Shown: positions 2,765-23,699 of the stretch, piece by piece
Position numbering within the stretch: position 1 is the first letter of the stretch
Layout: every line of letters starts with the position of its first letter
Source: Acidimicrobiaceae bacterium
Lineage (GTDB): Bacteria > Actinomycetota > Acidimicrobiia > Acidimicrobiales > Aldehydirespiratoraceae
Direction of reading: 5' to 3'
DNA length: 52,580 bases
Assembly: GCA_026710865.1 (NCBI GenBank)
Contig: JAPOQG010000049.1
Location: 1-52,580, forward strand
Translations under genes and position numbers: made by a program
Notes under the pieces: model-generated
What the model saw: only the letters and a program-made list of their open reading frames with translations
Databases searched by the model: none
What the model was told of the DNA's origin: nothing

Positions 2765-2808
2765 GCGCCGTCGGCCCACGCCGGCCCGGTGACACACCCA
2801 GGTCGCCG

Positions 2809-3017
2809 GGTGACCCGAGCCCGCTAGCCGATCCGACCGGCGAGTGACCCGAGTCCGGTGGCCGATCCGACCGCCGGCCGTCTCAGCGACCGACCGGCGA
2901 GTGACCCGAGTCCGCTGGCCGATCCGACCGCCGGCCGTCTCAGCGACGGATCCGACCGCCGAGTGACCGGAGTCCGCTAGCCGATCCGACCGCCGGCCGT
3001 CTCAGCGACCGACCGGC
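2809..3017. repeat. Intergenic tandem repeat, ~57-62 bp unit, 3 full copies plus a partial copy
   Basis: Unit GAGTGACCCGAGTCCG(G/C)TGGCCGATCCGACCGCCGGCCGTCTCAGCGACCGACCGGC starts at 2842, 2899 and 2961; truncated copy from ~2809. Confidence 0.9.
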
Positions 3018-3023
3018 GCGGTG

Positions 3024-4460: not shown

Positions 4461-4553
4461 GCTCGAACGCTACTTTCTGGCCTCTGCTCGGCCGGCTTGC
4501 CGGCCGTCGCTCACACGGTGCGCCGGCCTCGGCGACAGACCGCCGACGCGATG

Positions 4554-4592
4554 AAGCCCACGTCAGGATACATGCTCTGACCTGGGCTTTTT
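4554..4592. terminator. Hairpin next to the left att copy (probable original tRNA terminator)
   Basis: AAGCCCA-CGTCAG...CTGAC-CTGGGCTT imperfect inverted repeat with a T run. Confidence 0.5.
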
Positions 4593-4594
4593 GT

Positions 4595-4639
4595 TGGTGG
4601 CGGGGGTAGGAATTGAACCTACGACCTTCAGGTTATGAG
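4595..4639 (-). repeat. Left att site: duplicated 3' 45 bp of tRNA-fMet
   Basis: TGGTGGCGGGGGTAGGAATTGAACCTACGACCTTCAGGTTATGAG matches 23623-23667 with one mismatch (4630) and stops just past the anticodon loop. Confidence 0.95.
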
Positions 4640-4650
4640 TTGCTTGCGGG

Positions 4651-4690
4651 CCGTGTCAGGCTGTGCCGGTCTGTGTCAGAGAGTGCCCCT
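4651..4690. promoter_or_regulatory. Four phased 10-bp repeats, candidate RDF/Xis binding sites
   Basis: ccGTGTCagg ctGTGCCggt ctGTGTCaga gaGTGCCcct, exact 10-bp period, starting 12 bp inside the att core. Confidence 0.5.
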
Positions 4691-4755
4691 GAAGTGAGCC
4701 TTCGCGAATTCGCTGTGCCGGCCGGTGCCTGTGGATAACGCTCCGTGCCGATCCG

Positions 4756-4778
4756 TCCATTAGAGAATCCATTAGAAG
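4756..4778 (+). repeat. Candidate integrase arm-type sites (left arm)
   Basis: TCCATTAGA twice in tandem; ATCCATTAGAAG (4767-4778) recurs exactly at 23553-23564. Confidence 0.65.
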
Positions 4779-4934
4779 CCTGCAGGCCAACCTCAGCGAG
4801 GCCGCAAGCCCGTAGCGGACCGCTGACTCCAGCATCCCGCCATCGCTCCGGCAGTCAACGTCGATGGCGCGCATCCACCGCCGGCGCGAGGCAAGTGACC
4901 GGATAGCGCCAAACTTGGGTGACTACTAACGTGG

Positions 4935-5093
4935 CTAGCCAGGATTGGGTAGCTGGCTGGAGTTTGGTTCGGGGTTCTTGCCGCGGCAGGTCTCGATGGA
5001 GACGGTGGCGACGACGGCGCGGCCTGCCTTCTCCCAAGTGTCGAGATCGACTGTTGGCTCTTTGCGTGTGGGCGGGTCGGGTTCAGGTGCCAT
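4935..5093 (-). CDS. Possible 52-aa small passenger ORF of the IS
   Basis: ATG 5093 to TAG inside the IR (MAPEPDPPTRKEPTVDLDTWEKAGRAVVATVSIETC...), downstream of and co-oriented with the transposase; below the ORF-track length cut-off. Confidence 0.3.
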   Translation of the reverse strand: MAPEPDPPTRKEPTVDLDTWEKAGRAVVATVSIETCRGKNPEPNSSQLPNPG

Positions 5094-5159
5094 GCTGGTC
5101 GCTGTGCGGTCCCGGCTGGGGCCTGTGCGCCGCGGCTGAGCCGGTGACGGTAGTGGCCC

Positions 5160-6122
5160 CTACGCGGCCCTTCCAGCCGCCACCAGTTCCCGCCACGGCA
5201 GCCGCCGGCGCTCCATCATGGCCGCGGCCTCGGCCATCCGGTCGGTGACATGGCGGTCGCGGCGGTTGTAGCGGAAGCTGTGCTCCTCGATGTAGCGGTG
5301 CAGATGATCGTCTGACATCCAGTGGTAGGTGCCGACGTAGGTCCGCTTCAAGTGGCTCCAGTAGTTCTCGATCCCGTTCGTCGAGACCGGCCCGCGGACG
5401 TACTCCCCGACCGAGTGCATGACCTTGGCGTGCAGGTATCCCATCTCTTTGAGCGGGTCGTAGCCGCGGTCGCCGTCGGTGAACACCGTCGATCCCGGCC
5501 GAGTCGTGTCGGCCACGATCCCGGTCAGCGTGTCCGACGCGGTGTCGGCTGTCGGCCGGGCTGTCACCTTGCCGCTGGCGCGGTCGCGGACTCCCACCAC
5601 CGGCGTCTTGTCCACCGCTCCGCGGCCGTGGATGCGCTCGCGGCGCTTGCTGGCGTGCATGTTCTTCGCTCTGCCGCCGATGAACGTCTCGTCGCACTCG
5701 ACCGGCCCCTCGAAACCCGGCAGCGACCCGTCGGCCAGCGCCTTGCGCAGCCGGTGGCCGACATGCCAAGCCGACTTCTGCGAGATGCCCAGATCGGCGG
5801 CGAGCTGCACCGACGACTTGCCCTTGGAGTTGGACAGGATCAGGAACAGCGCGAGCAGCCATGTCTGCGATCCCAGCTTCGACGCGTGCATCACAGTGTG
5901 ACTCATCACGCTGAAATGGCGGCGGCAATCCCGGCACCGGTACGGCATCGGGCGACGCTCCCGCACGCCGGCGACGTTGTGCGACTCGCAGTGCGGGCAC
6001 TGCGGTCCGCGCCGCCAGCGCCACGATTCCCACTGCTTCTCGGCAGCGGCGTCGTCGGGGTAGCGACGAAAGAACGCCGCCAGCGGCATCCCGGTCTTCA
6101 CGATCTCGTGCGGTTTGCTCAT
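5160..6122 (-). CDS. IS1595-family DDE transposase
   Basis: N-terminal Zn ribbon (CPHC...CRDC), HTH, VECDETFIGG, TVFTDG, STNGIENYW, EHSFRYNRR; probable ATG at 6122. Confidence 0.95.
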   Translation of the reverse strand: MSKPHEIVKTGMPLAAFFRRYPDDAAAEKQWESWRWRRGPQCPHCESHNVAGVRERRPMPYRCRDCRRHFSVMSHTVMHASKLGSQTWLLALFLILSNSKGKSSVQLAADLGISQKSAWHVGHRLRKALADGSLPGFEGPVECDETFIGGRAKNMHASKRRERIHGRGAVDKTPVVGVRDRASGKVTARPTADTASDTLTGIVADTTRPGSTVFTDGDRGYDPLKEMGYLHAKVMHSVGEYVRGPVSTNGIENYWSHLKRTYVGTYHWMSDDHLHRYIEEHSFRYNRRDRHVTDRMAEAAAMMERRRLPWRELVAAGRAA

Positions 6123-6276
6123 GCCCCCATGATCCCACAGGGGTACGACAACGGATTTGCCGTCCGACCTCACCTTTGGCTAGCCACGTTAGTAGTCACC
6201 CAAACTTGCAAAGGCTGCGCCGCACAGCCGCGACGGACTAGTCCCCCTCGAAGCCCTCGACCGCTTCGGCCGGTCG

Positions 6277-8133
6277 CTACTCCGGCACCGGGAGCCTGCT
6301 CGGTTTGGGGTCGATCTTTGGGAGACTCTGGAGCGCGGACATGATGCCCTTGCCGGAGTACGTGATCGTCAGCGTTTCAGTGGCCCGGGTGACCGCGACG
6401 TACAGCAGCCGCCGTTGGTCTTCGGCAAGCGTCTCTGGAGAGGTCGAGCGCACCCAGATGTGGTTGGCGCCTCCGATGATCACATGGCGGAACTCGAGGC
6501 CCTTGAGCAGTCCCAGAGTCGCCACCCGGACTCTGCCCTCTGCGTCGAAGATCCTGTCGCGGTTGCGTCCGGCCTTGGTGTCGAAGGCATCGGGCACAAG
6601 GCGCACCACATCGTGGCGCACGTCCTCGGTACCGAGCAGCACCGCGATCTGATCTGGGGGCGCGCCTGCAGCGCGCAGCTCCTGCACCCGCTCGGCGATC
6701 GCCTCTGCCTCGCCGCGGAGATCGGAGCAGTTCAAGGAAAGGGGCGGAAGACCGGTTCGCACGGCCTGGTCCGGCTCTACCAGCACATCCAGGTCGTCGG
6801 GTTGGTGCGTGCCGGGCTCCCGGCCGAGCCCCGCCAGCAACTCCCGGCCGAGGTCGAGTATCTGGCGGGTGTTGCGATAGTTGACGCTCAAGATGGTGGT
6901 ACGGCCCCGCGCCGTGATGCCGGGCGGATTCCAAGCCCTGCGGCGCCGGTAGATCATCTGGGCGCCGTCCAGGGCCATCACGAAGTGGTCCCGTCCCGGC
7001 TTGAGCATCGCCCAGGCCAGATCGAGGCCGGCCTCATCGAGGTCTTGGGCCTCGTCCACCAGCACCATGTCATACAGTTCGGCTTCGTCGAGGTCGGGCA
7101 CCGCCTGGACTGCATCGCGGCGCCGCCGGTCGAAATCGGGCCTGCGCTCATCATCGGGAGCGCGGCCCGCGTCCACCAGCACGTCCCGTGCCAGCGCATC
7201 CAGCGTGCGCACCCGGACGCCGTCATGCTCCGCCACTTGGTGTGTCAGCGCGAGCGACAGCGGTTTGTTGAAGCAGAGCAGGAGGATGCGCCAGTGCGGG
7301 AAGTGGCGGGCCATGTGCCGGGCCCGGTAGGTGAGGACGAGCGTCTTGCCGCTGCCGGCCACTCCCCGGATGAGGCGGTAGCCGGGGCCGAGGCTGTGGG
7401 CCAGGCGCTCCTGCCGACGGTCCAGGGTGCGGAGGATCTCGTCGTCGCTCTCGCGTTGCGGCGCGAACAGCTGCCCCTGCGTTCCCCGGATCACGATCCC
7501 AGGTCTGACCGCGGCCCGAGCCGCGGATTCCTTCTCCTGGGGCAGCGGTGCCCGGCGACCGCCGACGATCTCCTGAAGAGCCGGCCTCAAGGCCTCGATG
7601 TCGAAGTCGTCCGCGCACAGCACGGGAACATCCGCTCGGACGCTGGCCGCTTCGACGGCAGTCACATCGGGACAGGCCGCGGCCACCGCGACCGGCAGCC
7701 GCGCCACGTTGCGAGCGTCGAGACCTCGGCGCAACTCCGACGCCCGCTGTGCCGTCAGGTCCCGCAGCCGGTCGCGGTCGATCCTTCTGCGCCGGCTGCG
7801 CCGCTTGCCGGCCCGAATCCTCGCGGGAGCCTCCAAGACCACGATCCCGGACGACGGGTCGAGCACCACCAAGTACGCCTCGCCCTGGTCGTCGGCCGCC
7901 TCGATGCCCTCGAATCGCTGCTGCTCGAACTCCCTGCGCAGGGCGCGGTCCTCGCCGTCCCCGGTCCACTCCAGCCAGACCGTCACGTCGTCGGGCAGGA
8001 ACTCCCGCAGGCACTTGGCCACCGCCTGCAGCCGAGCCGGCACATCGTTGCGGCTCTGAATGTTGGCAGGCTGCAGGAAGGCCATAAGCACCTGCGACTC
8101 TAGTGCAGCCGTTGCGGCCGCAGCGGTTGACAC
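6277..8133 (-). CDS. Superfamily 1 (UvrD-like) helicase with degenerate N-terminal NERD-like domain
   Basis: GVAGSGKT, LCFNK, DEAQD, NYRN, KGLEF, LYVAVTRA; N-terminal YLVVLDPSSGIVVLEAP resembles a NERD core. Confidence 0.85.
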   Translation of the reverse strand: MSTAAAATAALESQVLMAFLQPANIQSRNDVPARLQAVAKCLREFLPDDVTVWLEWTGDGEDRALRREFEQQRFEGIEAADDQGEAYLVVLDPSSGIVVLEAPARIRAGKRRSRRRRIDRDRLRDLTAQRASELRRGLDARNVARLPVAVAAACPDVTAVEAASVRADVPVLCADDFDIEALRPALQEIVGGRRAPLPQEKESAARAAVRPGIVIRGTQGQLFAPQRESDDEILRTLDRRQERLAHSLGPGYRLIRGVAGSGKTLVLTYRARHMARHFPHWRILLLCFNKPLSLALTHQVAEHDGVRVRTLDALARDVLVDAGRAPDDERRPDFDRRRRDAVQAVPDLDEAELYDMVLVDEAQDLDEAGLDLAWAMLKPGRDHFVMALDGAQMIYRRRRAWNPPGITARGRTTILSVNYRNTRQILDLGRELLAGLGREPGTHQPDDLDVLVEPDQAVRTGLPPLSLNCSDLRGEAEAIAERVQELRAAGAPPDQIAVLLGTEDVRHDVVRLVPDAFDTKAGRNRDRIFDAEGRVRVATLGLLKGLEFRHVIIGGANHIWVRSTSPETLAEDQRRLLYVAVTRATETLTITYSGKGIMSALQSLPKIDPKPSRLPVPE

Positions 8134-8178
8134 CGCTGCGGCGCCCCTTCAAGCATCCCCAGAGGCGGGCAGCCGCGG

Positions 8179-11100
8179 CTAGTCGATCCCCCTCAGCTGT
8201 TCGCGGCCCTCGTCGGTGATCTCGAGGCGCTCGTAGCGGGTTCCGTCATGCTCGGCCGGAACAGAGCGAGCCAAGCCGTCGCCGATGAGGCGGTCGATGT
8301 GGAGTGCCACCGCCGATGCGCCCATGAAGGCGAGCCGGCCGGCGAGATGGTGGCGGGCGAGACGCGGGGGCAGGGCGTGCTCGGCCGATCCCAGGCTCCC
8401 GACCAGGGTCCGCTCCAGGTTGCGGCGCGAGTAGCCGGCGCCCCTGGTGTCGTCCAGCAGCTGCAGCACGATCCTACGGGCCGGCAGCGACTCCACCAGT
8501 CCCTCCCGGCTGATGTGGCTGGCCGCCCACCGGCGGTCCAGGTCGGCGCAGAGGTCGCATCGGTCACACACATCGAGAGCCTCGGCGTCGAAGTACTCCA
8601 TCATGGTGCGCACCCGGCAGCCGCTGCTCTGCCCCGCGTATCGTTTGGCCCGCTCCGACTTCGCTGCCACCTCGGCGTGCCGCCGCTCAGCCTGGGCTTC
8701 GATGACGGCCCAGCCGGGCTCCGCATCCGGCTTGCGCTCCAGCATCCAGGCGTGCTTCCACACCGAGAAGCCCAGGATGTCGCGCCGATTGAGCTCCAGC
8801 AGATCGGCGCCCACATCGCCTGCCGGGCGCCCCAGGCGCCTGCTCCACTCCCCGGCTCGGTAATCGCCGGTCCCGAGTCGTTCGATCAGCGCGACGAGGC
8901 TTCGGCCCCGCTCGGCCAATTCGGGCTCAGCAGTGCTCAACTCCTCCAGCCCCATCCCGGTGTCGGCCATCACCGACACCCGGCCGCGCCACGGCGTGTC
9001 GAGATGGCGGACAACCGCCCCAGACTGCTGCAAGTAGTGCACGGCCAGCGCGGCCGCCACCGACTCGCGGTCGGTCCCCGCGTCGTCGCTGGAGTCGAGC
9101 TCGTCCGGGTCGTAGGCGTGGACTCCCGGCCGCAGCCGCGACCATATGCGGCGCACCTGCTCGATGCCGGGGGCGGCGCCCTTCACGAAGACCCGGTGGA
9201 TCGAGCAGTCGCGGCGGGTTCTCAGCAGCACCGCGGTGCCGAAGGCCGGGCCCCTGCCCTCGACCGCGCCTCTGGCGGCCCGGCCGGTCTCCTGGACGTA
9301 CTCCTCGATGGTGGCGGGCATCTCGAGGTGCACGATCAGCGCGATGTCGGGTTTGTCGATGCCCATGCCGAAAGCCTTGGTGGCCACCACAACGTCGAGT
9401 TCGCCGTGGCGGAAGGCGTCCTCGATGTGGAGGCGCTCGTTGTCGTCCATTGCCCCGTGATAGGGCCGGGCCACATGGCCGGCGGCTCGGAGCAGCCCGG
9501 CGATGCGGACTGTGTCCCGGCGGGTGGGGACGTACACGATGGCCGGCTGGGACCGGAAGGCCTCCACAATCTGAACGGCTTTGACATCGCGGTCGGCCCG
9601 ATCGTTGCATTCCTCCACGAAATACCGGATCTCGGGCCGGTCCGGCGACAACGCCACCGGGGCGCCGGCCAGATCGAGGTCGAGGAGCTTCACGATGTCG
9701 CGGCGCACAGACTCGGTGGCCGTCGCCGTCACCGCAAGAACCGGAGGGCGGGAGCCGCCGGAGGCGATGCGCTTCAAAGCGTCGGGGATGGCGGCGTATT
9801 CGGGTCGGAACGAGTGGCCCCACTGCGAGATGCAGTGAGCCTCGTCCACTGCGACGCGGGCTGCGCCCATCGCGGCCAGCGTGCCGACGAACTCCTGGGA
9901 CCAGAGCCGCTCGGGGCTGATGTAGAGCAGCTTGTAGTCGCCTCGCGCCGCTCCGCGCAGGATGTCTCGCCACTCCGCCTGGCCCACCCCGCTGTGAATG
10001 GCCGCCACTGTTGTGATCCCGCGGGCGCGAAGGTTCTCGACCTGGTCGTTCATCAACGCCTTCAGTGGGGAGACCACCAGCGTGACGCCCGGTGACAGCA
10101 GAGCCGGGATCTGGAAGGTGATCGACTTTCCCGAGCCTGTGGGCAGCACAGCCAGGAAGTCTGATCCCTCGATGAAGCGGCTCATGGTCTCGAGCTGGCC
10201 GGGTCGCCAGCGCCGGAACCCGAACATCTGCCGCACCCGCTCAAGGCGCGCCGCCACGACCTCCCGGCGGTGTGCGTCTGTCTCGCTCAACTCGAGATCC
10301 GCGAGTGCGGCCCAGGGGTCCGGGCTCTCGACGGCGCCAATGCGCTCCAGCATCTGGTCGTTCAGTTCGATGTCGCCTAGATGTTCGGCGATGTGGCGGT
10401 AGGCGTCCTCGGCCCGCTTGGCTTGGACCCGTCGCGGTGGACCCGCAAGCGTGTCAAGAACCACGTCGCGGTAGGGAACCGCCCGGCAGAGGCGGCTGTC
10501 GAGCACGACGGTGACACCCCGGTCGTGTTCGGTGCGTATGAGCCGTCCGACGCCTTGGGCGAAGCGCAGCGCCGCCCGCGGAACCAGGTATTCGCCATAG
10601 GGGTCCTTGCCCCGCAACTCGAGGGCCTCCATGCGGGCGCCGGCCACGGGATCAGCCGGGGAGTCGAACGGGATCTTCTCGATCATCAGCAGGCTGAGAG
10701 CCTCGCCGGGGATGTCGACGCCCTCCCAGAACGAACGCAGCGCGATGAGACTGGTGGCTGTCTCGGCCCTCATCCGCTCCACCAGGGCAACCGCCGCATC
10801 GTCGCCCTGCGCCAGCAGCGGGAGGCCCTCGGCCTCGAGGATCGGCCGGGAGTGGTCGCGCACAACCCCCAGCCGGGCGCGCGCCGCCATGAGCACCAAC
10901 CCCCGCCCGGAGGTGAGCATCAGCAGTCGGGGGATCTCCGCCGCGGCGGAAACCTTGAACTCCTCCATGAGCCGGCTGCGCGGCGCCGGCAGGTAGTCGG
11001 TCAGCACCAGCAGGTGGTTGTCGCCGATCCAGGCGAACGGGCTTCCCAGAACCGACGTCTGAACAGAACCAAGTCCGAGGCTGTCAATGATGTAGTCGAA

Positions 11101-13362
11101 ACTCCCACCTGCTGTAAGCGTCGCCGAGGTGAGCACCGCGGCCTCCAGCGACTCCCACACGCTCGAGAGCGGTCCGGCCACCGACACCGGCGAGCGGCGC
11201 AGTTCCCACGCCCAACTCCGGGAGTGCGTCCCATAGGAGATGGCTGCGATCGCGATCAGCTTCTCGGGATCGGTCACCCACAGCACGTCCCCGACGGTGC
11301 GAGCGGCGTCGCGGGCGGCCCTTCCGTGGCGGCTTGCCTCGGCTTCGAGGCGGCTGCGCCGGTAACGGCCCGACAGTTCTGCGGGAAGGTTCACCTCATT
11401 GAGCGAGCCAGCGAGCCCGCGGAGGGCCTCGACCAAGTGCTGACCGCTGGTGAGGACCTCGCGGTAGTCGGGGTGCTGGGTGTCGTGGCCGCGCCTGATC
11501 CGGTAGGTCGCCGGATATGTGTCGGTGGCACTCGCTCCCGTGCGGATGCGCAGGTAGCCCACGAGCGTCTCCCCGAAGCGCTCGGACCGTTCCCTGACAA
11601 GATCCACGGCACGACGGATGGCGCCGAGGGGCTCATAGACGCCCGCCGACGACTCGCTGTCGAGCCTCTCGTCTGGCCCCAACCCCTCCCCCGTCCGGTC
11701 AGCGACCTCTTCGAGCCGGTTGCCGGTGTCGAGGACGACCCGGTTCGCGGCATCGTCGCGTAAGGACCATCCGGCGGCATCCGCCAGTCGGCGCACGGTT
11801 CCGCTGCGGCGCCGCGGATCCCACAGCGCGTCGCACAACGCAGCGAGATCGTCCCGAGACACCGCGTCGGTGAGGGCCTCGGTGGCGGCGTCCTCGAGAT
11901 TGTGGGCCTCGTCGAGGACCAGGTGCTTGGAGTGATGGATCCATTCGTGGTCCGAGACGACCAGCGCATGGTTCAGCACCGCAACATGGACGCTGTGCAG
12001 ACCCTGACGCGCCCGGCGATGAAAGTCGAGCCTGTCCAGCGCGGAAATCGGCGGACCCGTCGCATCCTCTCGACTGAGTACACGACGCAGATCGCTCAGC
12101 GCGGTCCGTCCGCCCTCCAACGCCCCGGCCCTAAGGTCGTCCCAATCCCCGGTCGCGGTCTGGGCCACCCAGCCGCACACCATCGCCAGCGCAAAGACCG
12201 CATCAGGTGTGAACACTCCCGGATTCTCCGCCAGGGCGTCGAGCTCGCCGGCCAGAGATTCCAGGTCTATGTAGTTGTTGCGTCCTTTCACGAGCACCCA
12301 CGCGAAGGGCTCCACTTCCTCCGAGAGATCCTCCAGGGTGGCCATCACCTGATCCTGGAGCACCTTGGAGTGCGGGGCGACAACCACCGTGCCGCCGCTG
12401 GCCCGTGCGTACTCGATGGCGGGCACGAGGTAGGCCAGCGTCTTGCCGGTGCCGGTGGGCGCCTCAATGAGAAGTCGGCCGCCTGCGTGCAGGCTCTCGG
12501 CGGTCCGTACGGCCATCTCCATCTGCTGGCGCCGCGGCCGGCGAGCATGACCCATCAAGGCGCCCCCATCACCGAACATCGCGGCGACATCGCCAGGGTT
12601 GAAACCGCCGGTGGAAGGACCCCGCTGCCGCCCAGCCGGCACGGGAACGACATCCTCCAGCGGCACCGGCTCGGACTCTTCGGTGAGCAACCCCGCCCAC
12701 GGATGGCGCCCGGCTCCCAGAACCCAGCGCTGCAGCCGTCGAGCCGGTCCCGAGCCGCCGACTCGTCTCAGCAGCGACGGCAGAACACGCAGGAGCAACC
12801 GGGAATCGTCCAGCGCCCGGTGCGCGCTCCGCGCTTGGATCCCCAGCAAGTAATGGGCCAATTCGTCAAGGCTGCGTGCCGCAGGCGGCCTACTGCCGTC
12901 CACGTTGCCGACAATGCCCTTGCCGGCCCGGGGGAACGCCAGATGCGCAAGTTCCAAGGTGTCGAGCCTGACAACCTCAGGCGTGGGCACTCCGGCGTCG
13001 GCTCCAACAGAGTCCAGCAGCACGAAGTCATAGCGCAGACCGTTGTGGGCGACCATCGGTCGGTCCCCCACGAAGCTGTAGAAGCCGCGAAGCGCCGCGG
13101 CCGGCATCGGAGCAGCAGCAAGCCCCTCGTCAGTCAAGCCCGTCAACTCGCAGGTGAAGTCGCGCAGCCGCCGAGTAGGACGAACCAGAGTCTCGAATGT
13201 GTCGACTTCGACCCCGTCACAGACCAAAACCGCGCCGATCTCGATGATCTCATGCGCGGGAGGGTCAGACCGGTCGGCGTTGGCCTCAAGATCGAAGACT
13301 ATGAACTCCCCGTCAACCCAACTCAAACCCTGAACCTCAACTCCCTGACCGGCCGACCTCAA
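8179..13362 (-). CDS. DEDDh 3'-5' exonuclease - DinG-family helicase - RecQ-family helicase fusion (1727 aa)
   Basis: Exonuclease: FDLEAN, AHNGLRYD, HRALDD. DinG: EAPTGTGKT, DEAH, TSATL, EGVDIPG, QGVGRLIR. RecQ: LPTGSGKS, DEAHCISQWGHSFRPEY, TATAT, AFGMGIDKPD, YVQETGRAAR, Zn site CR...CDRCDLC. Exact start codon uncertain. Confidence 0.9.
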   Translation of the reverse strand: MRSAGQGVEVQGLSWVDGEFIVFDLEANADRSDPPAHEIIEIGAVLVCDGVEVDTFETLVRPTRRLRDFTCELTGLTDEGLAAAPMPAAALRGFYSFVGDRPMVAHNGLRYDFVLLDSVGADAGVPTPEVVRLDTLELAHLAFPRAGKGIVGNVDGSRPPAARSLDELAHYLLGIQARSAHRALDDSRLLLRVLPSLLRRVGGSGPARRLQRWVLGAGRHPWAGLLTEESEPVPLEDVVPVPAGRQRGPSTGGFNPGDVAAMFGDGGALMGHARRPRRQQMEMAVRTAESLHAGGRLLIEAPTGTGKTLAYLVPAIEYARASGGTVVVAPHSKVLQDQVMATLEDLSEEVEPFAWVLVKGRNNYIDLESLAGELDALAENPGVFTPDAVFALAMVCGWVAQTATGDWDDLRAGALEGGRTALSDLRRVLSREDATGPPISALDRLDFHRRARQGLHSVHVAVLNHALVVSDHEWIHHSKHLVLDEAHNLEDAATEALTDAVSRDDLAALCDALWDPRRRSGTVRRLADAAGWSLRDDAANRVVLDTGNRLEEVADRTGEGLGPDERLDSESSAGVYEPLGAIRRAVDLVRERSERFGETLVGYLRIRTGASATDTYPATYRIRRGHDTQHPDYREVLTSGQHLVEALRGLAGSLNEVNLPAELSGRYRRSRLEAEASRHGRAARDAARTVGDVLWVTDPEKLIAIAAISYGTHSRSWAWELRRSPVSVAGPLSSVWESLEAAVLTSATLTAGGSFDYIIDSLGLGSVQTSVLGSPFAWIGDNHLLVLTDYLPAPRSRLMEEFKVSAAAEIPRLLMLTSGRGLVLMAARARLGVVRDHSRPILEAEGLPLLAQGDDAAVALVERMRAETATSLIALRSFWEGVDIPGEALSLLMIEKIPFDSPADPVAGARMEALELRGKDPYGEYLVPRAALRFAQGVGRLIRTEHDRGVTVVLDSRLCRAVPYRDVVLDTLAGPPRRVQAKRAEDAYRHIAEHLGDIELNDQMLERIGAVESPDPWAALADLELSETDAHRREVVAARLERVRQMFGFRRWRPGQLETMSRFIEGSDFLAVLPTGSGKSITFQIPALLSPGVTLVVSPLKALMNDQVENLRARGITTVAAIHSGVGQAEWRDILRGAARGDYKLLYISPERLWSQEFVGTLAAMGAARVAVDEAHCISQWGHSFRPEYAAIPDALKRIASGGSRPPVLAVTATATESVRRDIVKLLDLDLAGAPVALSPDRPEIRYFVEECNDRADRDVKAVQIVEAFRSQPAIVYVPTRRDTVRIAGLLRAAGHVARPYHGAMDDNERLHIEDAFRHGELDVVVATKAFGMGIDKPDIALIVHLEMPATIEEYVQETGRAARGAVEGRGPAFGTAVLLRTRRDCSIHRVFVKGAAPGIEQVRRIWSRLRPGVHAYDPDELDSSDDAGTDRESVAAALAVHYLQQSGAVVRHLDTPWRGRVSVMADTGMGLEELSTAEPELAERGRSLVALIERLGTGDYRAGEWSRRLGRPAGDVGADLLELNRRDILGFSVWKHAWMLERKPDAEPGWAVIEAQAERRHAEVAAKSERAKRYAGQSSGCRVRTMMEYFDAEALDVCDRCDLCADLDRRWAASHISREGLVESLPARRIVLQLLDDTRGAGYSRRNLERTLVGSLGSAEHALPPRLARHHLAGRLAFMGASAVALHIDRLIGDGLARSVPAEHDGTRYERLEITDEGREQLRGID

Positions 13363-13419
13363 ACGTTAGACACCTGGAATTATCTGGTGCACCAGAGCCG
13401 GCGCAATACCCGGTGAGGT

Positions 13420-14592
13420 TCAGTACGCCTCGCGTGTGAGCAGGTCGTCGAGGGAGTCGACCCAGGTGTCGTCGATTCGCTGGATGGCGCCGATCTTTGT
13501 GTTGTCCTTGGTCCACGGTGTGAGGTCGCGGGCCCACTTGAACTTGAATGTCCATCGCTTGGTGACCGGGAACATGCACGCTGCGACGATGTCGAAGGCG
13601 TCGTAGTCGTACTTCCTTCCTGCGCCCGAGTCGCGTGTCTTCTGGGTCTCGACCTTGGCGTCGCCGTCCTTGTAGGTCTCGCTGAGGGCGTTCTTGCATT
13701 CGATCGTCAGTTCGCGTCCGTCGCTGAGCCAGATCCGGAAGTCCGGCATTCCGTCCTGATCGATCGCCTCGCAGGCGGCGACGCACTGGTCGCCGTCGAG
13801 GAGGTTGCCCAAGTGGTGTTCTGCAATGCTCCCCCGCACCGCGACGCCGAGGCGGAAGTTCGAGTCGATGATGTCGAGGATGGTGGCCGCGCTGACCCCG
13901 TAGAGGGCTTCAAGGTCGTGGCGACCGATCCTGCCGTCGACGAAGTGTTCAGCGAGGCTGAGGCGCAGACCCGTGTCGAAGCCGAGGCTCGTTGCGAGCG
14001 CCTCGAAGCGGGCGTAGTCGAGCAAGCGGTCGGGACGGAAGCCGACCATGGATTCGATGCCGTCCCAGCCCTCGCCTTGGGCCGTGCGCGGTCTTGTCTT
14101 CTCCCTGGCCCACCAGGCCCAGCCCGTGGCCCTCACTGTTTCGGCGTTGATGTCCCGGTAGTAGCCCGAGATTCCCATCGGGAGCTGCGCGTAGACGAGG
14201 GGATCCAGACCGACGACGACGCCCGTCTCGGGGTCGACGGCGAGTATCAGGGTGATGTCCACTCCAGCGGGATCGTGGCCGACCGGGTTCAGTTCGCAGC
14301 GGACTCGTTCCGGGTCGCCGTACCGGATCTGGAAGCGGTGCTCTGTGGATGGTCGGTTTCGGGTGGCTCGTCTCGTCGTGGTGAACGGATAGACGACGAG
14401 GCCGAAGCGGTGGTTGTCGCTGTCTTCGGCGCCGAAAAAGATCGGTGCCAGCCTCTTGGCCGGGAAGGAGCACGAGACCACTCGTCCGCCCCCGTCCTCA
14501 ATGCCTTTGAGCAACAGGTCTACGACGGGTGTGCGGGACCTTGAGATGCGGTACAGCTTGGGGATGTAGCTGCGGCCGGCCAGATCCGCCAC
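13420..14592 (-). CDS. Putative restriction endonuclease, C-terminal PD-(D/E)xK domain plus N-terminal uncharacterised domain
   Basis: IAEHH...GMPDF...IECKN motif; GAGGAG RBS; 24 nt downstream of a C5 MTase. Confidence 0.75.
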   Translation of the reverse strand: MADLAGRSYIPKLYRISRSRTPVVDLLLKGIEDGGGRVVSCSFPAKRLAPIFFGAEDSDNHRFGLVVYPFTTTRRATRNRPSTEHRFQIRYGDPERVRCELNPVGHDPAGVDITLILAVDPETGVVVGLDPLVYAQLPMGISGYYRDINAETVRATGWAWWAREKTRPRTAQGEGWDGIESMVGFRPDRLLDYARFEALATSLGFDTGLRLSLAEHFVDGRIGRHDLEALYGVSAATILDIIDSNFRLGVAVRGSIAEHHLGNLLDGDQCVAACEAIDQDGMPDFRIWLSDGRELTIECKNALSETYKDGDAKVETQKTRDSGAGRKYDYDAFDIVAACMFPVTKRWTFKFKWARDLTPWTKDNTKIGAIQRIDDTWVDSLDDLLTREAY

Positions 14593-14616
14593 GGCCCACT
14601 CCTCAGTTCGGCCGCG

Positions 14617-15702
14617 TCAGCATGCGGCCGCCAGGGCCCGAGCCACTTGCTCAGCAAACAGCGGAGGCACAGAGTTCCCGATCTGAGCCTGAACTGATGC
14701 GCGCTTCCCGACGAACGCGAAGTCGTCCGGGAACGTGAAGAGCCTGCGTAGCTCGGGGACGCGCAGGCGGCGGTTGTCCCAGTGGAACGGGCCGACGTTG
14801 GGGCCGGGCTGGGCCTGGATCGTCGGTGACGGCCTGTGGGGATCGAGCTTCAACAGGAACGACCAATACCGGGACCGCCACTCGAAGATCGGCGCGGGGT
14901 GACCGCGCTTGTCGGTGAAGTAGAGGTAGTTGTCGCCAGGCGGGATCTCGGGCAGGAGGTGGCCCCAGCGTCCCCGCACCACCTCCTCGGGCTCGGGGTC
15001 GGTGATCAGCCCGGCGAGCGCCTCGCCGGCGGTGACGTGGGGCAGCGGCCCACCGGTCGCAGCTCGTCGTTCCCACGGTCCGTGATGAGTCGGATCCGGC
15101 AGATCCGGCAGCACGTCTCGCTTGCGACAGCCCACGAGGCACAACCGGGGCCGGGCCTGGGGCACCCCGAAGTCGGCGGTGTTGAGCACCTGCCATCTGA
15201 GGCGGTACCCGGCAGTCTCGATCTCTGCCAGCAGGCGGGTGAACGCCGGCCTGCTCGCCTTGTTGTTGAAGGTCAACGCGTACACGTTCTCGAGGATGAA
15301 GTACCGGGGCCTCGCCTCGGCAAGAACACGGGTATAGGCCTGCAGCAGACTCGCTGCGGGGTCGACGCCCTCGCGCTTCCAGTCGAGCCAGAAGCCGGAC
15401 TTGGAGAACGCAACGCACGGCGGTCCGCCCACGAGCAAGTCGGGCCTCTCCCGGCTCGACAGGCCTGCCGCCCGGAGGATGTCACCCGTGGTCAGTCCCT
15501 CGCCGGCGCCAGTGGCGAGCGGGTAGAGGTCGGCCCGGACCACCTCGCGGAGACCCGGAAAGCAGGTCGGGGCGTTCTTCTCCATGGTGTCGCAGGCATC
15601 GTCGTCCCATTCCACCGCAGCCAGGATGGCGAACCCTGCCGACTCGACCCCCAAGTCGAGGCCCCCGGCGCCAGAGAACAGCGAGATCGCGGAGCCAACC
15701 AT
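14617..15702 (-). CDS. DNA (cytosine-5)-methyltransferase
   Basis: SLFSGAGGLD (I), GGPPC (IV), ENV (VI), QARPR (VIII), QIGNSV (X); likely start ATG 15702 rather than 15822. Confidence 0.96.
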   Translation of the reverse strand: MVGSAISLFSGAGGLDLGVESAGFAILAAVEWDDDACDTMEKNAPTCFPGLREVVRADLYPLATGAGEGLTTGDILRAAGLSSRERPDLLVGGPPCVAFSKSGFWLDWKREGVDPAASLLQAYTRVLAEARPRYFILENVYALTFNNKASRPAFTRLLAEIETAGYRLRWQVLNTADFGVPQARPRLCLVGCRKRDVLPDLPDPTHHGPWERRAATGGPLPHVTAGEALAGLITDPEPEEVVRGRWGHLLPEIPPGDNYLYFTDKRGHPAPIFEWRSRYWSFLLKLDPHRPSPTIQAQPGPNVGPFHWDNRRLRVPELRRLFTFPDDFAFVGKRASVQAQIGNSVPPLFAEQVARALAAAC

Positions 15703-15953
15703 CACGCCCTCAGTCTGCACGCTGCGGTCGGCATGGACGCGCACCCTCTGCCCATCCCCAAGACGCAATTGCACGCCTCGGGCTCGCTGGTCAATGTGAG
15801 CGGAATCCACGCCAAGAAGCACACAGCAGGGGTGTGACAGTTGCGGCGGCCATCAGCTCAGAGCCGCAGTTCGCAGCCTCTCTGGACACGGAATCGGCGG
15901 TCCGCTCCGTTGACGCGACGGTGACCGAGCCACCGATCCCCTAACCGGATCAG

Positions 15954-16863
15954 GTAAGGCCGTCGACCGCATCTCGTATGATCGAACATCCGGCTGCACA
16001 TCAACCCCGACATCGAGGCCATCCCGCTGCAGAGGCTCCAGCCCGAGGACCTCGACGAGCTGTACGTCAGGCTCCTCACCGACGGCAAGCGCAACGGCGG
16101 CGGAGGCGGCCCGTCGGCCAAGTCGGTGCACAACGTCCACGCCACCTTGCAGAGCGCTCTGTCCGATGCGGCCGGCAAGGGCACCGTCGCCCGCAACGTG
16201 GCCGACACCGCTGATCCGCCCTCGATCAGCCGCAGCGGCCGATCGATCAGCGTGTGGACCGGCGACCAGCTGCGCTGCTTCCTCGACGCGATGGCCGACC
16301 ACGAGCTGTGTGCGCTGTATCTGCTCGCCGCGACCACCGGGATACGCCGCCGCGAGGTCGCCGGCCTGCTGTGGCACAACGTCGACCTCGAAGCGGCCCG
16401 GCTCACCACCAACCAGCAGATCGTGTCGGTTCAGTACCAGCTCATCGAGAGCGACCTCAAGACCCCCACCAGCCGCCGCAACATCGACCTCGACCCCCGA
16501 ACCGTCACCGAGCTGCGCCGCCACCGCCGCCGCCAGCTCGAAGAGCGCATGGCCACTGGCCAGCGCGGCGACGACGGCTACGTGTTCGCAAAGCCCGACG
16601 GCTCGCCCATCCACCCCGACCTGATCAGCCAGACCTTCGAGCGCGCCGTCGGCAAGCTCGACATCCCCCGCATCCGCCTACACGACCTGCGCCACACCCA
16701 CGCCACCATCCTGTTGCAACAGAACGTCCACCCCAAGGTCGTCAGCGAACGCCTGAGCCACGCCAGCGTCGCCTTCACCATGACTGTCTACCAACACGTC
16801 ATGCCCGGCCTACAGGCCCAAGCCGCCTCCACCTTTCAGGCTGCTGTCTTCGGAGAGCGATGA
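15954..16863 (+). pseudogene. Tyrosine integrase, N-terminally truncated and frameshifted
   Basis: Catalytic R (TGIRRRE), K (LKT), HDLRH, LSHA and Y (TVYQH) are intact. The frame is open upstream only to TGA 15979-15981; VRPST..SYD/RNIRLHI is split across frames; no arm-binding N-domain. Confidence 0.85.
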
Positions 16864-16984
16864 CCTTGGGCCCTCGCTCTGTCTCGTCGAGACGACACGT
16901 TCGGCGGCACGATTCACCCAAGCGAGCACAACGCAGGCCGACCTCCCACCCGGAACCGAACCCTCGAAGGGTCCGTTAACCGCC

Positions 16985-17638
16985 GTGGGCGCCACGAGCC
17001 TAGTGCAACAGGCGTTTAGGGATGCCGGGCGGTGTGGATGGTCCGAATGTCCCGTGCCGCTGACCCACGTACTCGATGTGATCGGCGAAAGATCGGAGGT
17101 CATTCCCTCAAGGCCCGGTGACTCGCCCGTCGGGGTGCTCCAGGCCACCGACCAGACTCATGCTCGTCGGCTATCGCTTAGCGGACGATTCGGACGTGGC
17201 GTGTTCCCCCTACATACCGACGGTGCCCATCTACTTGACCCTCCCGACATGGTGCTACTGGAGTTCCGGCAGCCCACATCACTAGCGCCGACTCTGCTGT
17301 TCACCCCTCAACTAGATGAAGTTCCCTCTGCCCTCAGCCACGCGCTCCATCAGGGGGTATTCGACACTGGCGTTGGCAGGACGACCTTTCTTACTCATGC
17401 GGTCACCAAGCAGCGTATGCGTTTCGATCCGGTGATAATGGCGCCGCGAGATGCTCTCGCTCGTTTGGTCACCTGGTTCTTTGGCGAATGCATCGGGCGC
17501 TCGATCAAGTACCGTGCGCGAGCACCCGGCGTGACGCTCATCATCAACAACAGGCGGACCCTCCACGGACGAGCAGCCGTGCCGGATGGCACCAGCAGAG
17601 AGGCCGACCGAGCGATGATTAGGTGGATTCCAGCATGA
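16985..17638 (+). CDS. TauD/TfdA-like 2-oxoglutarate Fe(II) oxygenase (minimal)
   Basis: FPLHTDGAH (HxD) and LIINNRRTLHGR (distal His + Arg). Confidence 0.75.
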   Translation: MGATSLVQQAFRDAGRCGWSECPVPLTHVLDVIGERSEVIPSRPGDSPVGVLQATDQTHARRLSLSGRFGRGVFPLHTDGAHLLDPPDMVLLEFRQPTSLAPTLLFTPQLDEVPSALSHALHQGVFDTGVGRTTFLTHAVTKQRMRFDPVIMAPRDALARLVTWFFGECIGRSIKYRARAPGVTLIINNRRTLHGRAAVPDGTSREADRAMIRWIPA

Positions 17639-18510
17639 GCCTCCCGTACGACCCCGAGGCTGTGTGGATGAAGGCCAAGAACTTCATCAATCGCAGCTTT
17701 GACGCTCTCGATGACGATGACTTCCCGCGAGCAGCGCTCTGGGCAGCGAACTCCTTGGAACTGCTCGCAGGTTCGACCCTGTGCCAGATCAACCCGCTGC
17801 TCGTCGCAGATCCATCAGACGACGGACGAAGTCTGATGCTGGCCGCCGGCCTGCCCGGAGACACGACCAGGTATCGCAGCATTCCAGCGAAGGCGCTCTT
17901 TAGTAGGTGTGCGCGTGCGTTCAGACCCTTCAACCGCGAGGAAGCGATGGAAATCGCGGCGCAGCGAAATGCCGAACTGCACTCGGGCGCAACCCCGTAC
18001 AGCGAGATCAAGGACCGTCAATCATGGTGGGAACGGTTCTGGTCGAACGCTGAGACGCTGCTGGACCATCGGGGATGCTCTATAGAAGACTTCGTCGGAC
18101 CCGGCCGTAGCGCCGACGTACAAGCACACCTGCTACGAGGCAAGCAGAATGTGCGGCGTCGGGTCGACTCGCTCGTGGAAGCAGCAGACCAACGCCTGGC
18201 GCTAGGCATAGCGCCACCCAAGCGGCTGGGCATCATTCCTGAATTGGACAGCTACGTCGAATGTCCAGTCTGCGGAGATGCCGCGCTATTGGGCGGTGAC
18301 GACATTGAGCACAGTGAGCTTGTTGTCGATGGAGATCAAGACGGCATATGGGGTTACGAGCTTGTCCAAGTTGAGGCCGATTGCTTCCAGTGCGAGAACT
18401 GCGGGCTCATGCTCGAAGGGTGGGCTTACATCAGTGCGGCCGGTCTTCCCACGACCTTTGAAATTGAGCGCCCATACGAGCCCGACGACGACTACTACCT
18501 AAACGAGTAG
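17635..18510 (+). CDS. Hypothetical protein, HEPN-like N-terminus and C-terminal Zn ribbon
   Basis: Helical N-terminus with LELLA and RNAELH (Rx4H); CPVC...CENC; ATGA overlap with the upstream gene. Confidence 0.65.
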   Translation: MSLPYDPEAVWMKAKNFINRSFDALDDDDFPRAALWAANSLELLAGSTLCQINPLLVADPSDDGRSLMLAAGLPGDTTRYRSIPAKALFSRCARAFRPFNREEAMEIAAQRNAELHSGATPYSEIKDRQSWWERFWSNAETLLDHRGCSIEDFVGPGRSADVQAHLLRGKQNVRRRVDSLVEAADQRLALGIAPPKRLGIIPELDSYVECPVCGDAALLGGDDIEHSELVVDGDQDGIWGYELVQVEADCFQCENCGLMLEGWAYISAAGLPTTFEIERPYEPDDDYYLNE

Positions 18511-18695
18511 TTCCGCGACCTCGACCATCGCCCGTCAAAGGGAGCCTGCCCGCCGCGGCGTGGAGATGACGCCCTTTTTCGGTGGCAACTGGCGCAAGCT
18601 GAGACGACCACGAAGCATGATCGATCGGCGTTACGGGCGTGAGCGCGGTGAATTCGCTCGTGCTGCAGGAAATACAGATGAAACAGGATCCTTAC

Positions 18696-19943
18696 TCATA
18701 CGGCTGGCTGTTGATACCTAGGCACCTCATTCACGAGTTCCGGTGTGTAGGCAAGCAGTATCGCGCCAGTGAGCCACCAGCCTCGGTAGATCAGGCGACG
18801 CGCAGTGCTGGGATCAACTCGCTTGAGTGTTGTGGGGTAGTTCGCGAGTTCTGCCACTCCATCGTCGGGCTCAGAAGGGTTCCTGTCAACGAAGTCGGAC
18901 AGAGCTGCAACGTTGGACGCTGGCACATCTCGGGGATGTGGGCTCCGCAACGTGAAGAGGCATCCATCAAGACCATTGAGATTCTGCGACTTGAATTCGT
19001 CGAGGAGGCTGCGCGAGCGCAGTGAGGCCACTTGCTGATAGAGAACGCTGTTCGCGCGCCATACGTCTCCAACGAGTGGCACGCGGCCGGCACGCGGCGA
19101 AGGGTTGAAACTCCCCCCGGCATTGACGACGATGCAGAACAGGTCCCGCATTTCGTCACGCACCTTCAGCGCGTCCGCCCCAAGGTTGTCGTAGACGCCT
19201 CCGTCAACAAGCTCGGGCGCGCCGACCTCTGCCTGACACGGTAGTGAGAGATCATCCAGGATGGTGGTGTTAAACGGTCCGGGCACGGCGCATGACCATG
19301 CAACCGCGTCAGCAACACGGAGTCCTAACGTCTTCGTTGCCTTGCTTCCGGTGATGTAGTCACCGACCAGATCTTGCGTGAATCGGAACCTTGTCCCTGC
19401 CGTGAGATTCGCGGCACTGATCTCAAACCAGGTCCCAGTCGGGAGTTCATCGAGTCGAGTGTGGCCGAACAGAGTCGTGGAAAGTCGTTGTGCGAGGAGG
19501 TCCGTGCGCGATCTCCAAGGCCCGAGCACTTGCCATGAACGAACGATGAGATCATGCTGCAGCGAGCGGCGCGTAACGATGCGTAGGAGCGGGACGGTGA
19601 CCAGCTCATCGAATGCACCACGAGTGAACCCGTGTGCCCGCAGTTGGTCCCATCTGAGAGCTACTAGGCCGGCAGCGATTGAGCCGCCGGACACTGAAGT
19701 CAAGTGACGGACATCCCCGAGACGACCGATGTCGGCGAGAAGCCGAAGCGTTCCAAGACCCACAAGAGTGGCTCGTAGGCCGCCACCAGAGAGCGCCACT
19801 CCAAGCGGTCGCTGTCCGGGCGCCAGGCAATCAAGGGCGCTACGCGCTGGTGCTGGAGCCTCGCAAGGTTGACGCCGAATGGACGGAGCGAGATCCTGGC
19901 CCGTTGTTATTCTTCTTCGTGGGAGGATGTGCCGTCGGCTCAT
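18696..19943 (-). CDS. Patatin-like phospholipase
   Basis: ALSGGGLRA, TSVSGGS nucleophile elbow, DGGVYDNLG; start ATG 19943 overlaps the JAB stop (ATGA). Confidence 0.9.
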   Translation of the reverse strand: MSRRHILPRRRITTGQDLAPSIRRQPCEAPAPARSALDCLAPGQRPLGVALSGGGLRATLVGLGTLRLLADIGRLGDVRHLTSVSGGSIAAGLVALRWDQLRAHGFTRGAFDELVTVPLLRIVTRRSLQHDLIVRSWQVLGPWRSRTDLLAQRLSTTLFGHTRLDELPTGTWFEISAANLTAGTRFRFTQDLVGDYITGSKATKTLGLRVADAVAWSCAVPGPFNTTILDDLSLPCQAEVGAPELVDGGVYDNLGADALKVRDEMRDLFCIVVNAGGSFNPSPRAGRVPLVGDVWRANSVLYQQVASLRSRSLLDEFKSQNLNGLDGCLFTLRSPHPRDVPASNVAALSDFVDRNPSEPDDGVAELANYPTTLKRVDPSTARRLIYRGWWLTGAILLAYTPELVNEVPRYQQPAV

Positions 19944-23581: not shown

Positions 23582-23619
23582 AAAGCCCAGACCAGCGCAT
23601 GTGCTCTGACCTGGGCTTT
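23582..23619 (-). terminator. Hairpin downstream of tRNA-fMet
   Basis: AAAGCCCAG...CTGGGCTTT inverted repeat directly after the CCA end. Confidence 0.6.
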
Positions 23620-23622
23620 CTT

Positions 23623-23699
<77 letters not shown>

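Follow-up and report, generated by a model that had tools for sequence, protein, structure and literature searches.

We analysed a 52,580-nt stretch of DNA (hereafter, the window) from a sponge-associated Acidimicrobiaceae bacterium (assembly GCA_026710865.1, contig JAPOQG010000049.1), in which four adjacent genes encode a C5 cytosine DNA methyltransferase, a putative restriction endonuclease, a fusion of a DEDDh 3'-5' exonuclease with DinG-type and RecQ-type helicases (hereafter, the fusion), and a superfamily 1 (SF1) UvrD-like helicase. An earlier note on this DNA had proposed that the four genes constitute a single candidate defence system. Our comparison indicates that they are very probably two separable modules lying side by side rather than one system. 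The methylase and nuclease genes appear, from their sequences, to form an ordinary-looking type II-like restriction-modification (RM) module, and the fusion and SF1 genes are a tight, horizontally mobile, accessory two-gene cassette. In full, the explanation that we favour, with rather more confidence than doubt, is an RM pair beside a mobile helicase-nuclease cassette for which defence is the likeliest role.

The pairing of fusion and SF1 helicase was counted in 16 loci, in all of which the fusion is at least 41% identical to that of the window. They comprise the window itself, loci from Acidimicrobiia metagenome-assembled genomes (MAGs; L001–L006, fusion 72–91% identical to the window), loci from a class sample of 401 genomes drawn evenly from the class (L044–L049, 41–50%), and the closest 3 of 80 metagenome loci (L055–L057, 47–59%). 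Within the class sample, genome G000 carries the window-type fusion; genome G275 has a RecQ-type match only, and no specific claim rests on it. Because L001 and L048 come without an upstream flank, the RM pair can be assessed in 14 of the 16 loci. Homologues of the methylase and nuclease were sought in the 80 metagenome loci at E<=1e-5, the SF1 protein was sought in the 401 class genomes at E<=1e-30, and neighbouring genes were annotated for two or three genes per side at most loci.

The SF1 helicase gene lies directly downstream of the fusion gene in all 16 loci, while the RM pair is found in two of them, the window and L004 (2 of the 14 assessable). Scored over the homologues of the fusion, as the earlier note had suggested, the SF1 gene is therefore the constant neighbour, and the methylase and nuclease genes are not. 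No homologue of the methylase or nuclease was detected in any of the 80 metagenome loci, and none occurs in L044–L052. Among the 401 class genomes, the fusion and the SF1 protein co-occur in the same seven, with one distant form of the fusion in addition; the one extra SF1 match is weak (G004, 31% identity, no fusion). Moreover, the identities of the two proteins to their window counterparts co-vary (r=0.99, n=15; r=0.91 in the nine distant loci), and when the top 120 clusters of the two families are compared, 39 of each lie on contigs of equal length, 11 of these shorter than 15 kb. The two occurrences of the RM pair beside the cassette count as a single event in history, since the blocks in the window and in L004 both adjoin the same tRNA-Met fragment and AsnC-type regulator. 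With one shared block behind both occurrences, none in the metagenome loci and an RM pair standing alone on a plasmid (see below), the proposal of a single four-gene system does not hold, and the co-occurrence data support instead the alternative that the earlier note had allowed, in which a type II RM pair lies beside an independent helicase module.

The cassette has its own boundaries. In relatives without the RM pair, the stretch that is homologous at the DNA level begins about 55 nt before the fusion start and closes with the stop codon of the SF1 gene (window ~6270–13380), so that a short leader is conserved with it (Table 1). Comparison of the loci and a repeat search found no terminal repeats at the cassette, and an informal inspection of the leader by eye found no PafBC/RecA-NDp-like or LexA-like box fitting the consensus. 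The cassette occurs in about ten different contexts, and the flanks are unrelated among loci apart from three exceptions: L002 resembles L003, a Macro/methyltransferase/HNH trio is common to L001 and L005, and HipA is common to L044 and L057. Within one genus, three genomes (L047–L049) carry the cassette in three different places. Its GC content at third codon positions (GC3) is lower than that of its neighbours, at 0.81–0.83 vs 0.92–0.96 in L002 and L003 and 0.67–0.70 vs 0.77–0.91 in L006. It is present in 7 of the 401 class genomes and in none of the three other genomes of the window's family, and the window's genome also has separate RecQ-like and DinG-like genes. In 3 of the 16 loci a cassette gene appears disrupted (the fusion in L006, the SF1 gene in L044 and in G182/L048; Table 1), possibly through decay of dispensable genes or through MAG assembly errors.

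Several neighbours of the cassette belong to families of defence or toxin-antitoxin type. In L004 the genes for IetA and IetS (17315–21042; AAA ATPase 2.1e-130, S8 protease 1e-255) directly follow the SF1 helicase gene, and a Mu-type transposase (rve plus Mu-transpos_C_2) lies 4 kb from the cassette. Neighbours of toxin-antitoxin type are HipA beside L044 and L057, a PIN toxin beside L047 and MazF beside L048. Among 50,697 phage records we found no full-length fusion, and none of the 37 matching records covers at least 80% of it; the plasmid matches to the SF1 protein are distant Ralstonia megaplasmid helicases (30–32%). A separate observation concerns L001, a 10-kb contig that starts at the fusion and ends inside an HNH gene: the Macro, class I methyltransferase and DUF222-HNH genes that lie downstream of its cassette (7205–10098) are the same trio that lies upstream of the cassette in L005 (6931–9857). 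The L001 contig could stem from a repeat, from tandem copies or from a circular molecule, and a multicopy HNH gene that breaks the assembly is the simpler reading.

The four open reading frames (ORFs) of the window occupy 6277–8133, 8179–13362, 13420–14592 and 14617–15822 on the minus strand, with gaps of 45, 57 and 24 nt, in agreement with the co-oriented arrangement described in the earlier note. Homologues support later starts for the SF1 helicase (M17, window 8085; 602 aa in a 618-aa ORF), for the fusion (TTG at 13326; 1715 aa in a 1727-aa ORF) and, with a probable start at the ATG at 15702, for the methylase. With these later starts, the actual spacers are ~24, 93 and 93 nt. Aligned to L004, the window shows one unbroken block of 9.6 kb at 90% identity (window 6204–15839) that contains exactly the four genes. 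A scan of 4500–17000 for promoters and terminators returned no promoter-like signal and four terminator-like ones, all on the plus strand and against 3.4 expected, a result that is uninformative at this high GC content.

The domain content read from the sequence by the earlier note, comprising a methylase, an endonuclease, a 3'-5' exonuclease and three helicase motors, is upheld by Pfam and other searches. The methylase matches TIGR00675 (5.5e-45, 154.4 bits against a cut-off of 100.65) in addition to Pfam DNA_methylase (Table 1), and its GGPPC and ENV motifs are present. Its best PADLOC model is DruM (3.2e-102), and the MTase_II and generic DrmMII models also match. The 390-aa nuclease, encoded 24 nt downstream, has no PADLOC or NCBIfam match and no PDB sequence match at E<=1, and a fold search of the PDB gave nothing convincing for its MTaX1 domain. 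We assign the protein as a putative PD-(D/E)xK enzyme because an alignment of 21 homologues shows conservation of E258, D284 and E298-C-K300 and because its AlphaFold model (predicted local distance difference test, pLDDT, 90.5) finds I-Ssp6803I (E 2.3e-4) and Hjc resolvase as its best PDB folds. The family comprises 420 representative clusters at E<=1e-3.

Adjacency of such a methylase and nuclease was found in three places: the window, L004, which is related to it, and the Rathayibacter plasmid NZ_CP047178, where the genes for a 42%-identical MTaX1 nuclease and a C5 methylase diverge and no helicase gene lies in the vicinity. The features of a type II RM module are thus present, namely a methylase with its catalytic motifs, an adjoining nuclease with an intact site, and an adjacency that recurs. 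Going by what is known of these families, the C5 methylase would mark self DNA and the MTaX1 plus PD-(D/E)xK enzyme would cut DNA that is unmarked. The pair resembles MTaX1-type RM pairs (Pfam PF20296; PMC10853773), which have the same C5 methylase and MTaX1 neighbour; the nuclease described here has an intact PD-(D/E)xK site. A perfect 14-nt palindrome in the spacer between nuclease and fusion (Table 1; one match in the window spacer, none in 100 shuffles) recurs in L004 only. One contig, from run X9, covers the methylase and helicase genes but joins across a 462-nt in-frame deletion in the nuclease gene (window 13882–14345); a related strain may have lost its restriction gene.

The fusion combines its three enzymatic parts in one chain. 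In Pfam it matches RNase_T (9.1e-19, residues 21–193), the DinG-type pair ResIII (276–362) and Helicase_C_2 (812–960; 1.2e-28), DEAD (2.2e-39) and Helicase_C (7.6e-22) of the RecQ part (1054–1364), and RecQ_Zn_bind (3.3e-5, 1556–1605). The NCBIfam models for DinG, RecQ and DnaQ-exonuclease/DinG match below their equivalog cut-offs, as expected from the fused architecture, and only TIGR00614 (a RecQ-family subfamily) matches above its cut-off. Across 41 aligned sequences the DEDDh residues D24, E26, D112, H181 and D186, both Walker A motifs, both DEAH boxes, both motifs VI and the zinc cysteines C1582, C1599, C1602 and C1605 are invariant, and H1176 of the RecQ part is found in at least 90%, which argues that all three activities are maintained. 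The zinc module of the RecQ part is preceded by a linker of ~150 residues, a layout that it shares with the helicase RqlH (PMC3378886).

The SF1 partner retains its motor motifs, with Walker A GSGKT, DEAQD and the TRA motif VI invariant in 43 sequences, and in PADLOC it matches C3a187, labelled ‘NERD+UvrD’ (1.5e-49). The N-terminal ~200 residues form an alpha/beta domain (model pLDDT 79.8) on which Pfam NERD finds no match. Nevertheless, the protein aligns over its full length with the true NERD-UvrD protein of L045 (hhalign probability 99.7), and two catalytic residues of the NERD-like domain are replaced (D->Y, K->P). From its sequence the SF1 partner is probably a NERD-UvrD protein by descent and not by activity. 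Its best structural matches are SLFN11, UvrD, Rep, PcrA and Dna2. The L045 protein used for this alignment is a second SF1 helicase of that genome (12811–14535), encoded divergently from the cassette and with an intact Pfam NERD domain (1.6e-11). The HRDC domain is usual in RecQ helicases; here Pfam finds none on the RecQ part of the fusion, and HRDC (PF00570) is instead found at the C-terminus of some SF1 partners (P0209, P0218, P0225; 796–886 aa), which hints at functional complementarity of the two genes. A predicted complex of fusion residues 985–1727 with SF1 residues 1–215 gave a score of 0.00 (mark 0.32) and, as a single domain pair, is evidence neither for nor against contact.

The three-domain fusion itself is already known from Thermus. 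A DnaQ exonuclease-DinG-RecQ fusion encoded on the megaplasmid of Thermus thermophilus HB27 was noted in 2005, with no function assigned (Omelchenko et al., PMC1274311). The homologue on T. thermophilus plasmid pHC11 (1649 aa, 30% identity over 1463 columns) matches RNase_T, DinG-type Helicase_C_2, DEAD/Helicase_C and RecQ_Zn_bind in the same order as the fusion of the window, which likewise has DEDDh, DinG, and RecQ plus zinc module in order in one chain. The Thermus fusion is strain-variable and plasmid-borne, and is thus also accessory. The 80 metagenome loci include about 25 more fusions of full length (~30% identity), from which the SF1 partner is missing and beside which other genes are the constant neighbours. 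In the Thermus-type clade (L053, L080, L081, L082, L084, L130) no SF1 partner is present and three conserved proteins follow the fusion (~280–400, ~160–205 and ~500–550 aa, the middle one in five of the six loci), none of which matches a Pfam family above threshold among the proteins scanned. The fusion operon of L053, on pHC11 (7669–15514), has a type III-B cmr cluster ~4 kb away.

A further group of fusions, 29–37% identical to that of the window (L050 7461–19998, L074 10001–22313, L076 and L077), is followed by a giant SNF2 protein of 2163–2646 aa with DrmD/BrxH/HmaA-like PADLOC matches, and this looks like a second conserved two-gene module. A third kind of constant neighbour, an uncharacterised protein, is common to six fusion loci. 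The L050 fusion has upstream of it the genes for a type III methylase (MTase_III 7.7e-273) and for a Res-like protein; neither is found in L074, L076 or L077, so this RM adjacency is sporadic. The pairing of the fusion with the SF1 helicase seems to be undescribed: we found no account of the pair as a system in the open-access literature, supplements aside. One broader interpretation is that the fusion is the core of a widespread and hitherto unrecognised DNA-targeting immune superfamily that swaps partners, with the SNF2 giant and the Thermus trio as the partners in other clades and with the Acidimicrobiia cassette as a new two-gene defence system, in which the bipolar helicase-exonuclease would destroy the DNA of invaders and the dead NERD-SF1 protein would supply sensing or loading. 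We put this forward as a tentative possibility, short of an even chance.

Comparison with named systems agrees with the statement in the earlier note that the signature genes of DISARM (defence island system associated with restriction-modification) and BREX (bacteriophage exclusion) are absent; none appears among the Pfam matches of the four proteins or the PADLOC matches listed. For DISARM, there is no DUF1998 or PLD in Pfam, and DrmA, DrmB and DrmC are absent from the best 25 of 56 PADLOC families matching the fusion and the best 25 of 34 matching the SF1 protein. For BREX, no PglZ, BrxC or PglX is among the listed matches of the four proteins and ten island neighbours, and the BrxHI/BrxHII matches on the fusion concern the helicase core alone. 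Druantia type II shares a DruM-like methylase with the window, but no DruE, DruF or DruG is among the matches listed, and no DUF1998. Gabija is matched weakly through the SF1 protein (GajB, best 2.3e-16), with no GajA-like gene in the island. PsyrT of PsyrTA/RqlHI matches the RecQ core only (2.1e-94, residues 1040–1423), and Pfam finds no phosphoribosyltransferase (PRTase) domain in the protein, whereas RqlH is a RecQ-like helicase with a phosphoribosyltransferase-like C-terminal domain (PMC3378886). The CasDinG of type IV-A CRISPR systems matches the DinG part of the fusion (typeIV_DinG 2.7e-90), but TIGR03117 reaches 78.6 bits against a cut-off of 400; no cas gene was seen among the scanned neighbours, and a repeat search of 1–26000 found no array in the island.

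The known kind nearest to the imagined four-gene system is ARMADA type II, which also combines a methylase with several helicases, one of them UvrD-like, and has no defining component in common with the window (PMC12458937). ARMADA features a YprA-like helicase, a PglX-like methylase and a Snf2/BrxHII-like helicase (PMC12458937); in the window the methylase is a C5 enzyme and not of the PglX type, and Pfam finds no DUF1998/YprA or SNF2 domain in the four proteins. The N-terminal ~985 residues of the fusion have the same architecture as ExoDinG of S. aureus and B. subtilis (PRK08074 6.3e-111, TIGR01407 7.7e-97), the ‘3'-5' exonuclease DinG’ of PDB entry 8zef matches at 4.6e-35, and the DEDDh site is intact. 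ExoDinG, however, has no RecQ module, and within the class it is syntenic and housekeeping-looking (L051/L052). The term RecQ does not occur in a 2025 review of DinG-like proteins. Nhi-type defence consists of a single NERD plus UvrD-like nuclease-helicase protein. The SF1 partner aligns with such NERD + UvrD proteins (C3a187) over its full length, but two of its NERD catalytic residues are replaced, and within its own family it is never seen without the fusion upstream.

The domain content suggests how the cassette might work. RecBCD, AddAB and AdnAB combine motors of opposite polarity with a nuclease, and carry out processive destruction or resection from DNA ends. Beyond the SF1 core the cassette has no sequence relationship to these machines, it places two superfamily 2 (SF2) motors and a DEDDh exonuclease in one chain, and it is not known to be under Chi-type control. 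The S. aureus enzyme SaDinG is a 3'-5' exonuclease and 5'-3' helicase (PMC12345164), and RqlH moves 3'-5' (PMC3378886), so the fusion, by analogy, would hold motors of opposite polarity. The two SF2 motors would then each take one strand of a DNA end or fork and travel the same way, as in RecBCD, while the DEDDh exonuclease would degrade the 3' strand. The SF1 partner, with its nuclease domain inactivated, may be a third motor, a loader, a regulator or a sensor. Working in this way the cassette would degrade foreign linear or replicating DNA, and cleavage by the neighbouring RM enzymes could supply ends but would not be required.

Not all of the evidence points the same way, and a number of observations weigh against the picture of two modules, or against a defence role for the second. 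Three of them bear on the separation from the RM pair: the four-gene block is 90% identical in two genomes while both its flanks differ; near-identical contigs from other sponge samples bridge all of the junctions, including those between nuclease and fusion and between methylase and nuclease; and the distant fusion of L050 adjoins a type III methylase and Res-like gene, a second RM adjacency. From the first two it follows that the four genes have at least persisted together. Co-oriented as they are, with short spacers, they might be imagined as one system in which 5-methylcytosine marks self DNA, the nuclease cuts the invader and the helicase-exonuclease must process the break, and there are precedents for methylase plus multi-helicase systems, such as ARMADA type II with its one methylase and three helicases (PMC12458937). 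We nonetheless judge a single system to be very unlikely, given that 14 of the 16 cassette loci and all of the 80 metagenome loci are without a homologue of either RM gene, that the RM pair stands alone on a plasmid while the cassette keeps a conserved leader of its own, and that the type III methylase of L050 is missing from its relatives with the SNF2 partner (L074, L076 and L077).

The role of the cassette is the less settled part, and we rate an immune system and a repair accessory as evenly balanced when the question is put in those terms. PafB and PafC are regulators of the actinobacterial DNA-damage response. In L002 (8765–18772) and L003 (8777–18912) the cassette lies between pafB (WYL+WCX) and pafC (HTH_PafC+WYL+WCX) and follows the gene for Pup ligase, co-oriented with both regulators and at lower GC3; L049 adjoins a methyladenine glycosylase gene (Tag), L045 has a calcineurin-like phosphoesterase downstream of the cassette, and the neighbours in L006, L046 and L049 are all housekeeping genes. 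DinG, RecQ and UvrD all belong to the classical families of DNA repair, the ExoDinG proteins that have been characterised help cells to tolerate crosslinks and replication stress (PMC12345164, PMC12525004), and all of the catalytic sites of the cassette are under purifying selection. PADLOC models, for their part, gave domain-level matches to the four proteins and no system call, and it is we who infer the bipolar-motor mechanism and the SF1 role from related proteins. These points suit an accessory machine for repair, recombination or replication restart, possibly PafBC-controlled, that hitch-hikes in islands. Such a machine strikes us as rather unlikely, since a cassette found in so few class genomes, at different sites within one genus and with GC3 below that of its flanks, is hard to square with it, as are the stand-alone RecQ-like and DinG-like genes already in the genome, the RM, Iet and toxin-antitoxin neighbours, and the broken genes in 3 of 16 loci, which fit dispensability. 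Service to a mobile element in replication, transfer or counter-defence, rather than to the host, seems extremely improbable to us. The changes of site, the IS1595 element and tyrosine recombinase that flank the cassette in the window, the Mu-type transposase of L004 and the related three-domain fusions on Thermus megaplasmids would fit it; the conserved unit, however, consists of two genes and ~55 nt with no terminal repeats or recombinase travelling along, no full-length copy occurs in the phage records, and three loci (L006, L046, L049) have housekeeping contexts. A defence role remains the one that we favour, because of the RM, Iet, toxin-antitoxin and E1-E2/JAB/patatin neighbours and the patchy distribution.

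The window block lies in an island of ~19 kb, with tRNA-Met at one end and at the other a 51-nt copy of its 3' part, which confirms the tRNA-integrated island of the earlier note. The integrase-like gene, for a tyrosine recombinase (Table 1), sits mid-island and not beside the tRNA. A low-GC block in the island has a GC content of ~0.60 against ~0.72 outside it, and the GC3 of the four genes is 0.83–0.84 vs 0.93–0.97 in genes outside the island. The homology with L004, where the same tRNA-Met fragment adjoins the AsnC-type regulator, breaks off at window 6204, near the end of an IS1595-family insertion sequence whose transposase gene spans 5160–6173 (DDE_Tnp_IS1595 2.4e-39). Overall, the island resembles a defence island. 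Next to tRNA-Met are genes for a metallo-beta-lactamase (MBL)-fold protein, an E1-E2 fusion (PADLOC E1-E2 4.4e-135), a JAB peptidase (1.7e-16) and a patatin-like phospholipase. This block resembles the accessory and effector part of a type II CBASS-like (cyclic oligonucleotide-based antiphage signalling system) or ubiquitin-like conflict system; no nucleotidyltransferase was recognised with it among the island neighbours scanned. Outside the island, between the AsnC-type regulator and an M20 peptidase gene, lies a tandem array of GC-rich repeats (2804–3018; three to four copies of ~57–62 nt, 85–94% alike).

Table 1. Features of the four-gene block, its island and the disrupted cassette genes. 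Coordinates refer to the window unless a locus is named.
Feature	Coordinates	Strand	Details
SF1 UvrD-like helicase, 602 aa	6277..8085 (open to 8133)	-	UvrD_C 7.8e-13, UvrD-helicase 8.1e-11
Exo-DinG-RecQ fusion, 1715 aa	8179..13326 (open to 13362)	-	DEDDh ~1-205, DinG ~275-985, RecQ + 4-Cys zinc ~1040-1605, C-terminal tail
Leader conserved with cassette, ~55 nt	13327..13380	-	In L002, L003 and L005, blastn blocks extend to 13378-13380
Perfect 14-nt palindrome	13383..13396		Nuclease-fusion spacer, RM side of the boundary; possibly an operator or terminator stem
Putative restriction endonuclease, 390 aa	13420..14592	-	N-terminal MTaX1 (1e-12) and C-terminal PD-(D/E)xK
C5 cytosine DNA methyltransferase, 401-aa ORF	14617..15702 (open to 15822); start probable	-	DNA_methylase PF00145 7e-50, residues 45-397
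Direct repeat of tRNA-Met 3' part	4589..4639		51 nt, 94% identical to 23617-23667; far island end
IS1595-family insertion sequence	4910..6208	-	32-nt terminal inverted repeats 4910-4941/6177-6208, 94% complementary
Short tyrosine recombinase, 245 aa	16126..16863	+	Phage_integrase 5.2e-20; divergent from methylase
MBL-fold (398 aa), E1-E2 fusion (512 aa), JAB peptidase (160 aa), patatin-like phospholipase (442 aa)	18696-23153	-	Consecutive, next to tRNA-Met
tRNA-Met	23623..23699	-	Island integration site
L006, frameshift in fusion	~11150		
L044, frameshift in SF1 gene	~12975-12986		
L048 (G182:C13), two TAG stops or truncation in SF1 gene	5409-7247		

That an apparent four-gene system dissolves into an RM pair and its neighbour is a guard against over-calling systems from adjacency in defence islands. 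What remains is a compact, mobile and strictly paired cassette, common in sponge-symbiont Acidimicrobiia, with the motifs of three motors and an exonuclease intact. If the cassette is immune, a RecBCD-like module that degrades from the end would join the catalogue of defences, and the Thermus fusion of 2005 would gain a function; if it serves repair, it would be an unusual, horizontally traded device that is able to insert between pafB and pafC. In both cases, comparing the partners that the fusion has in different clades gives a handle on its core function.

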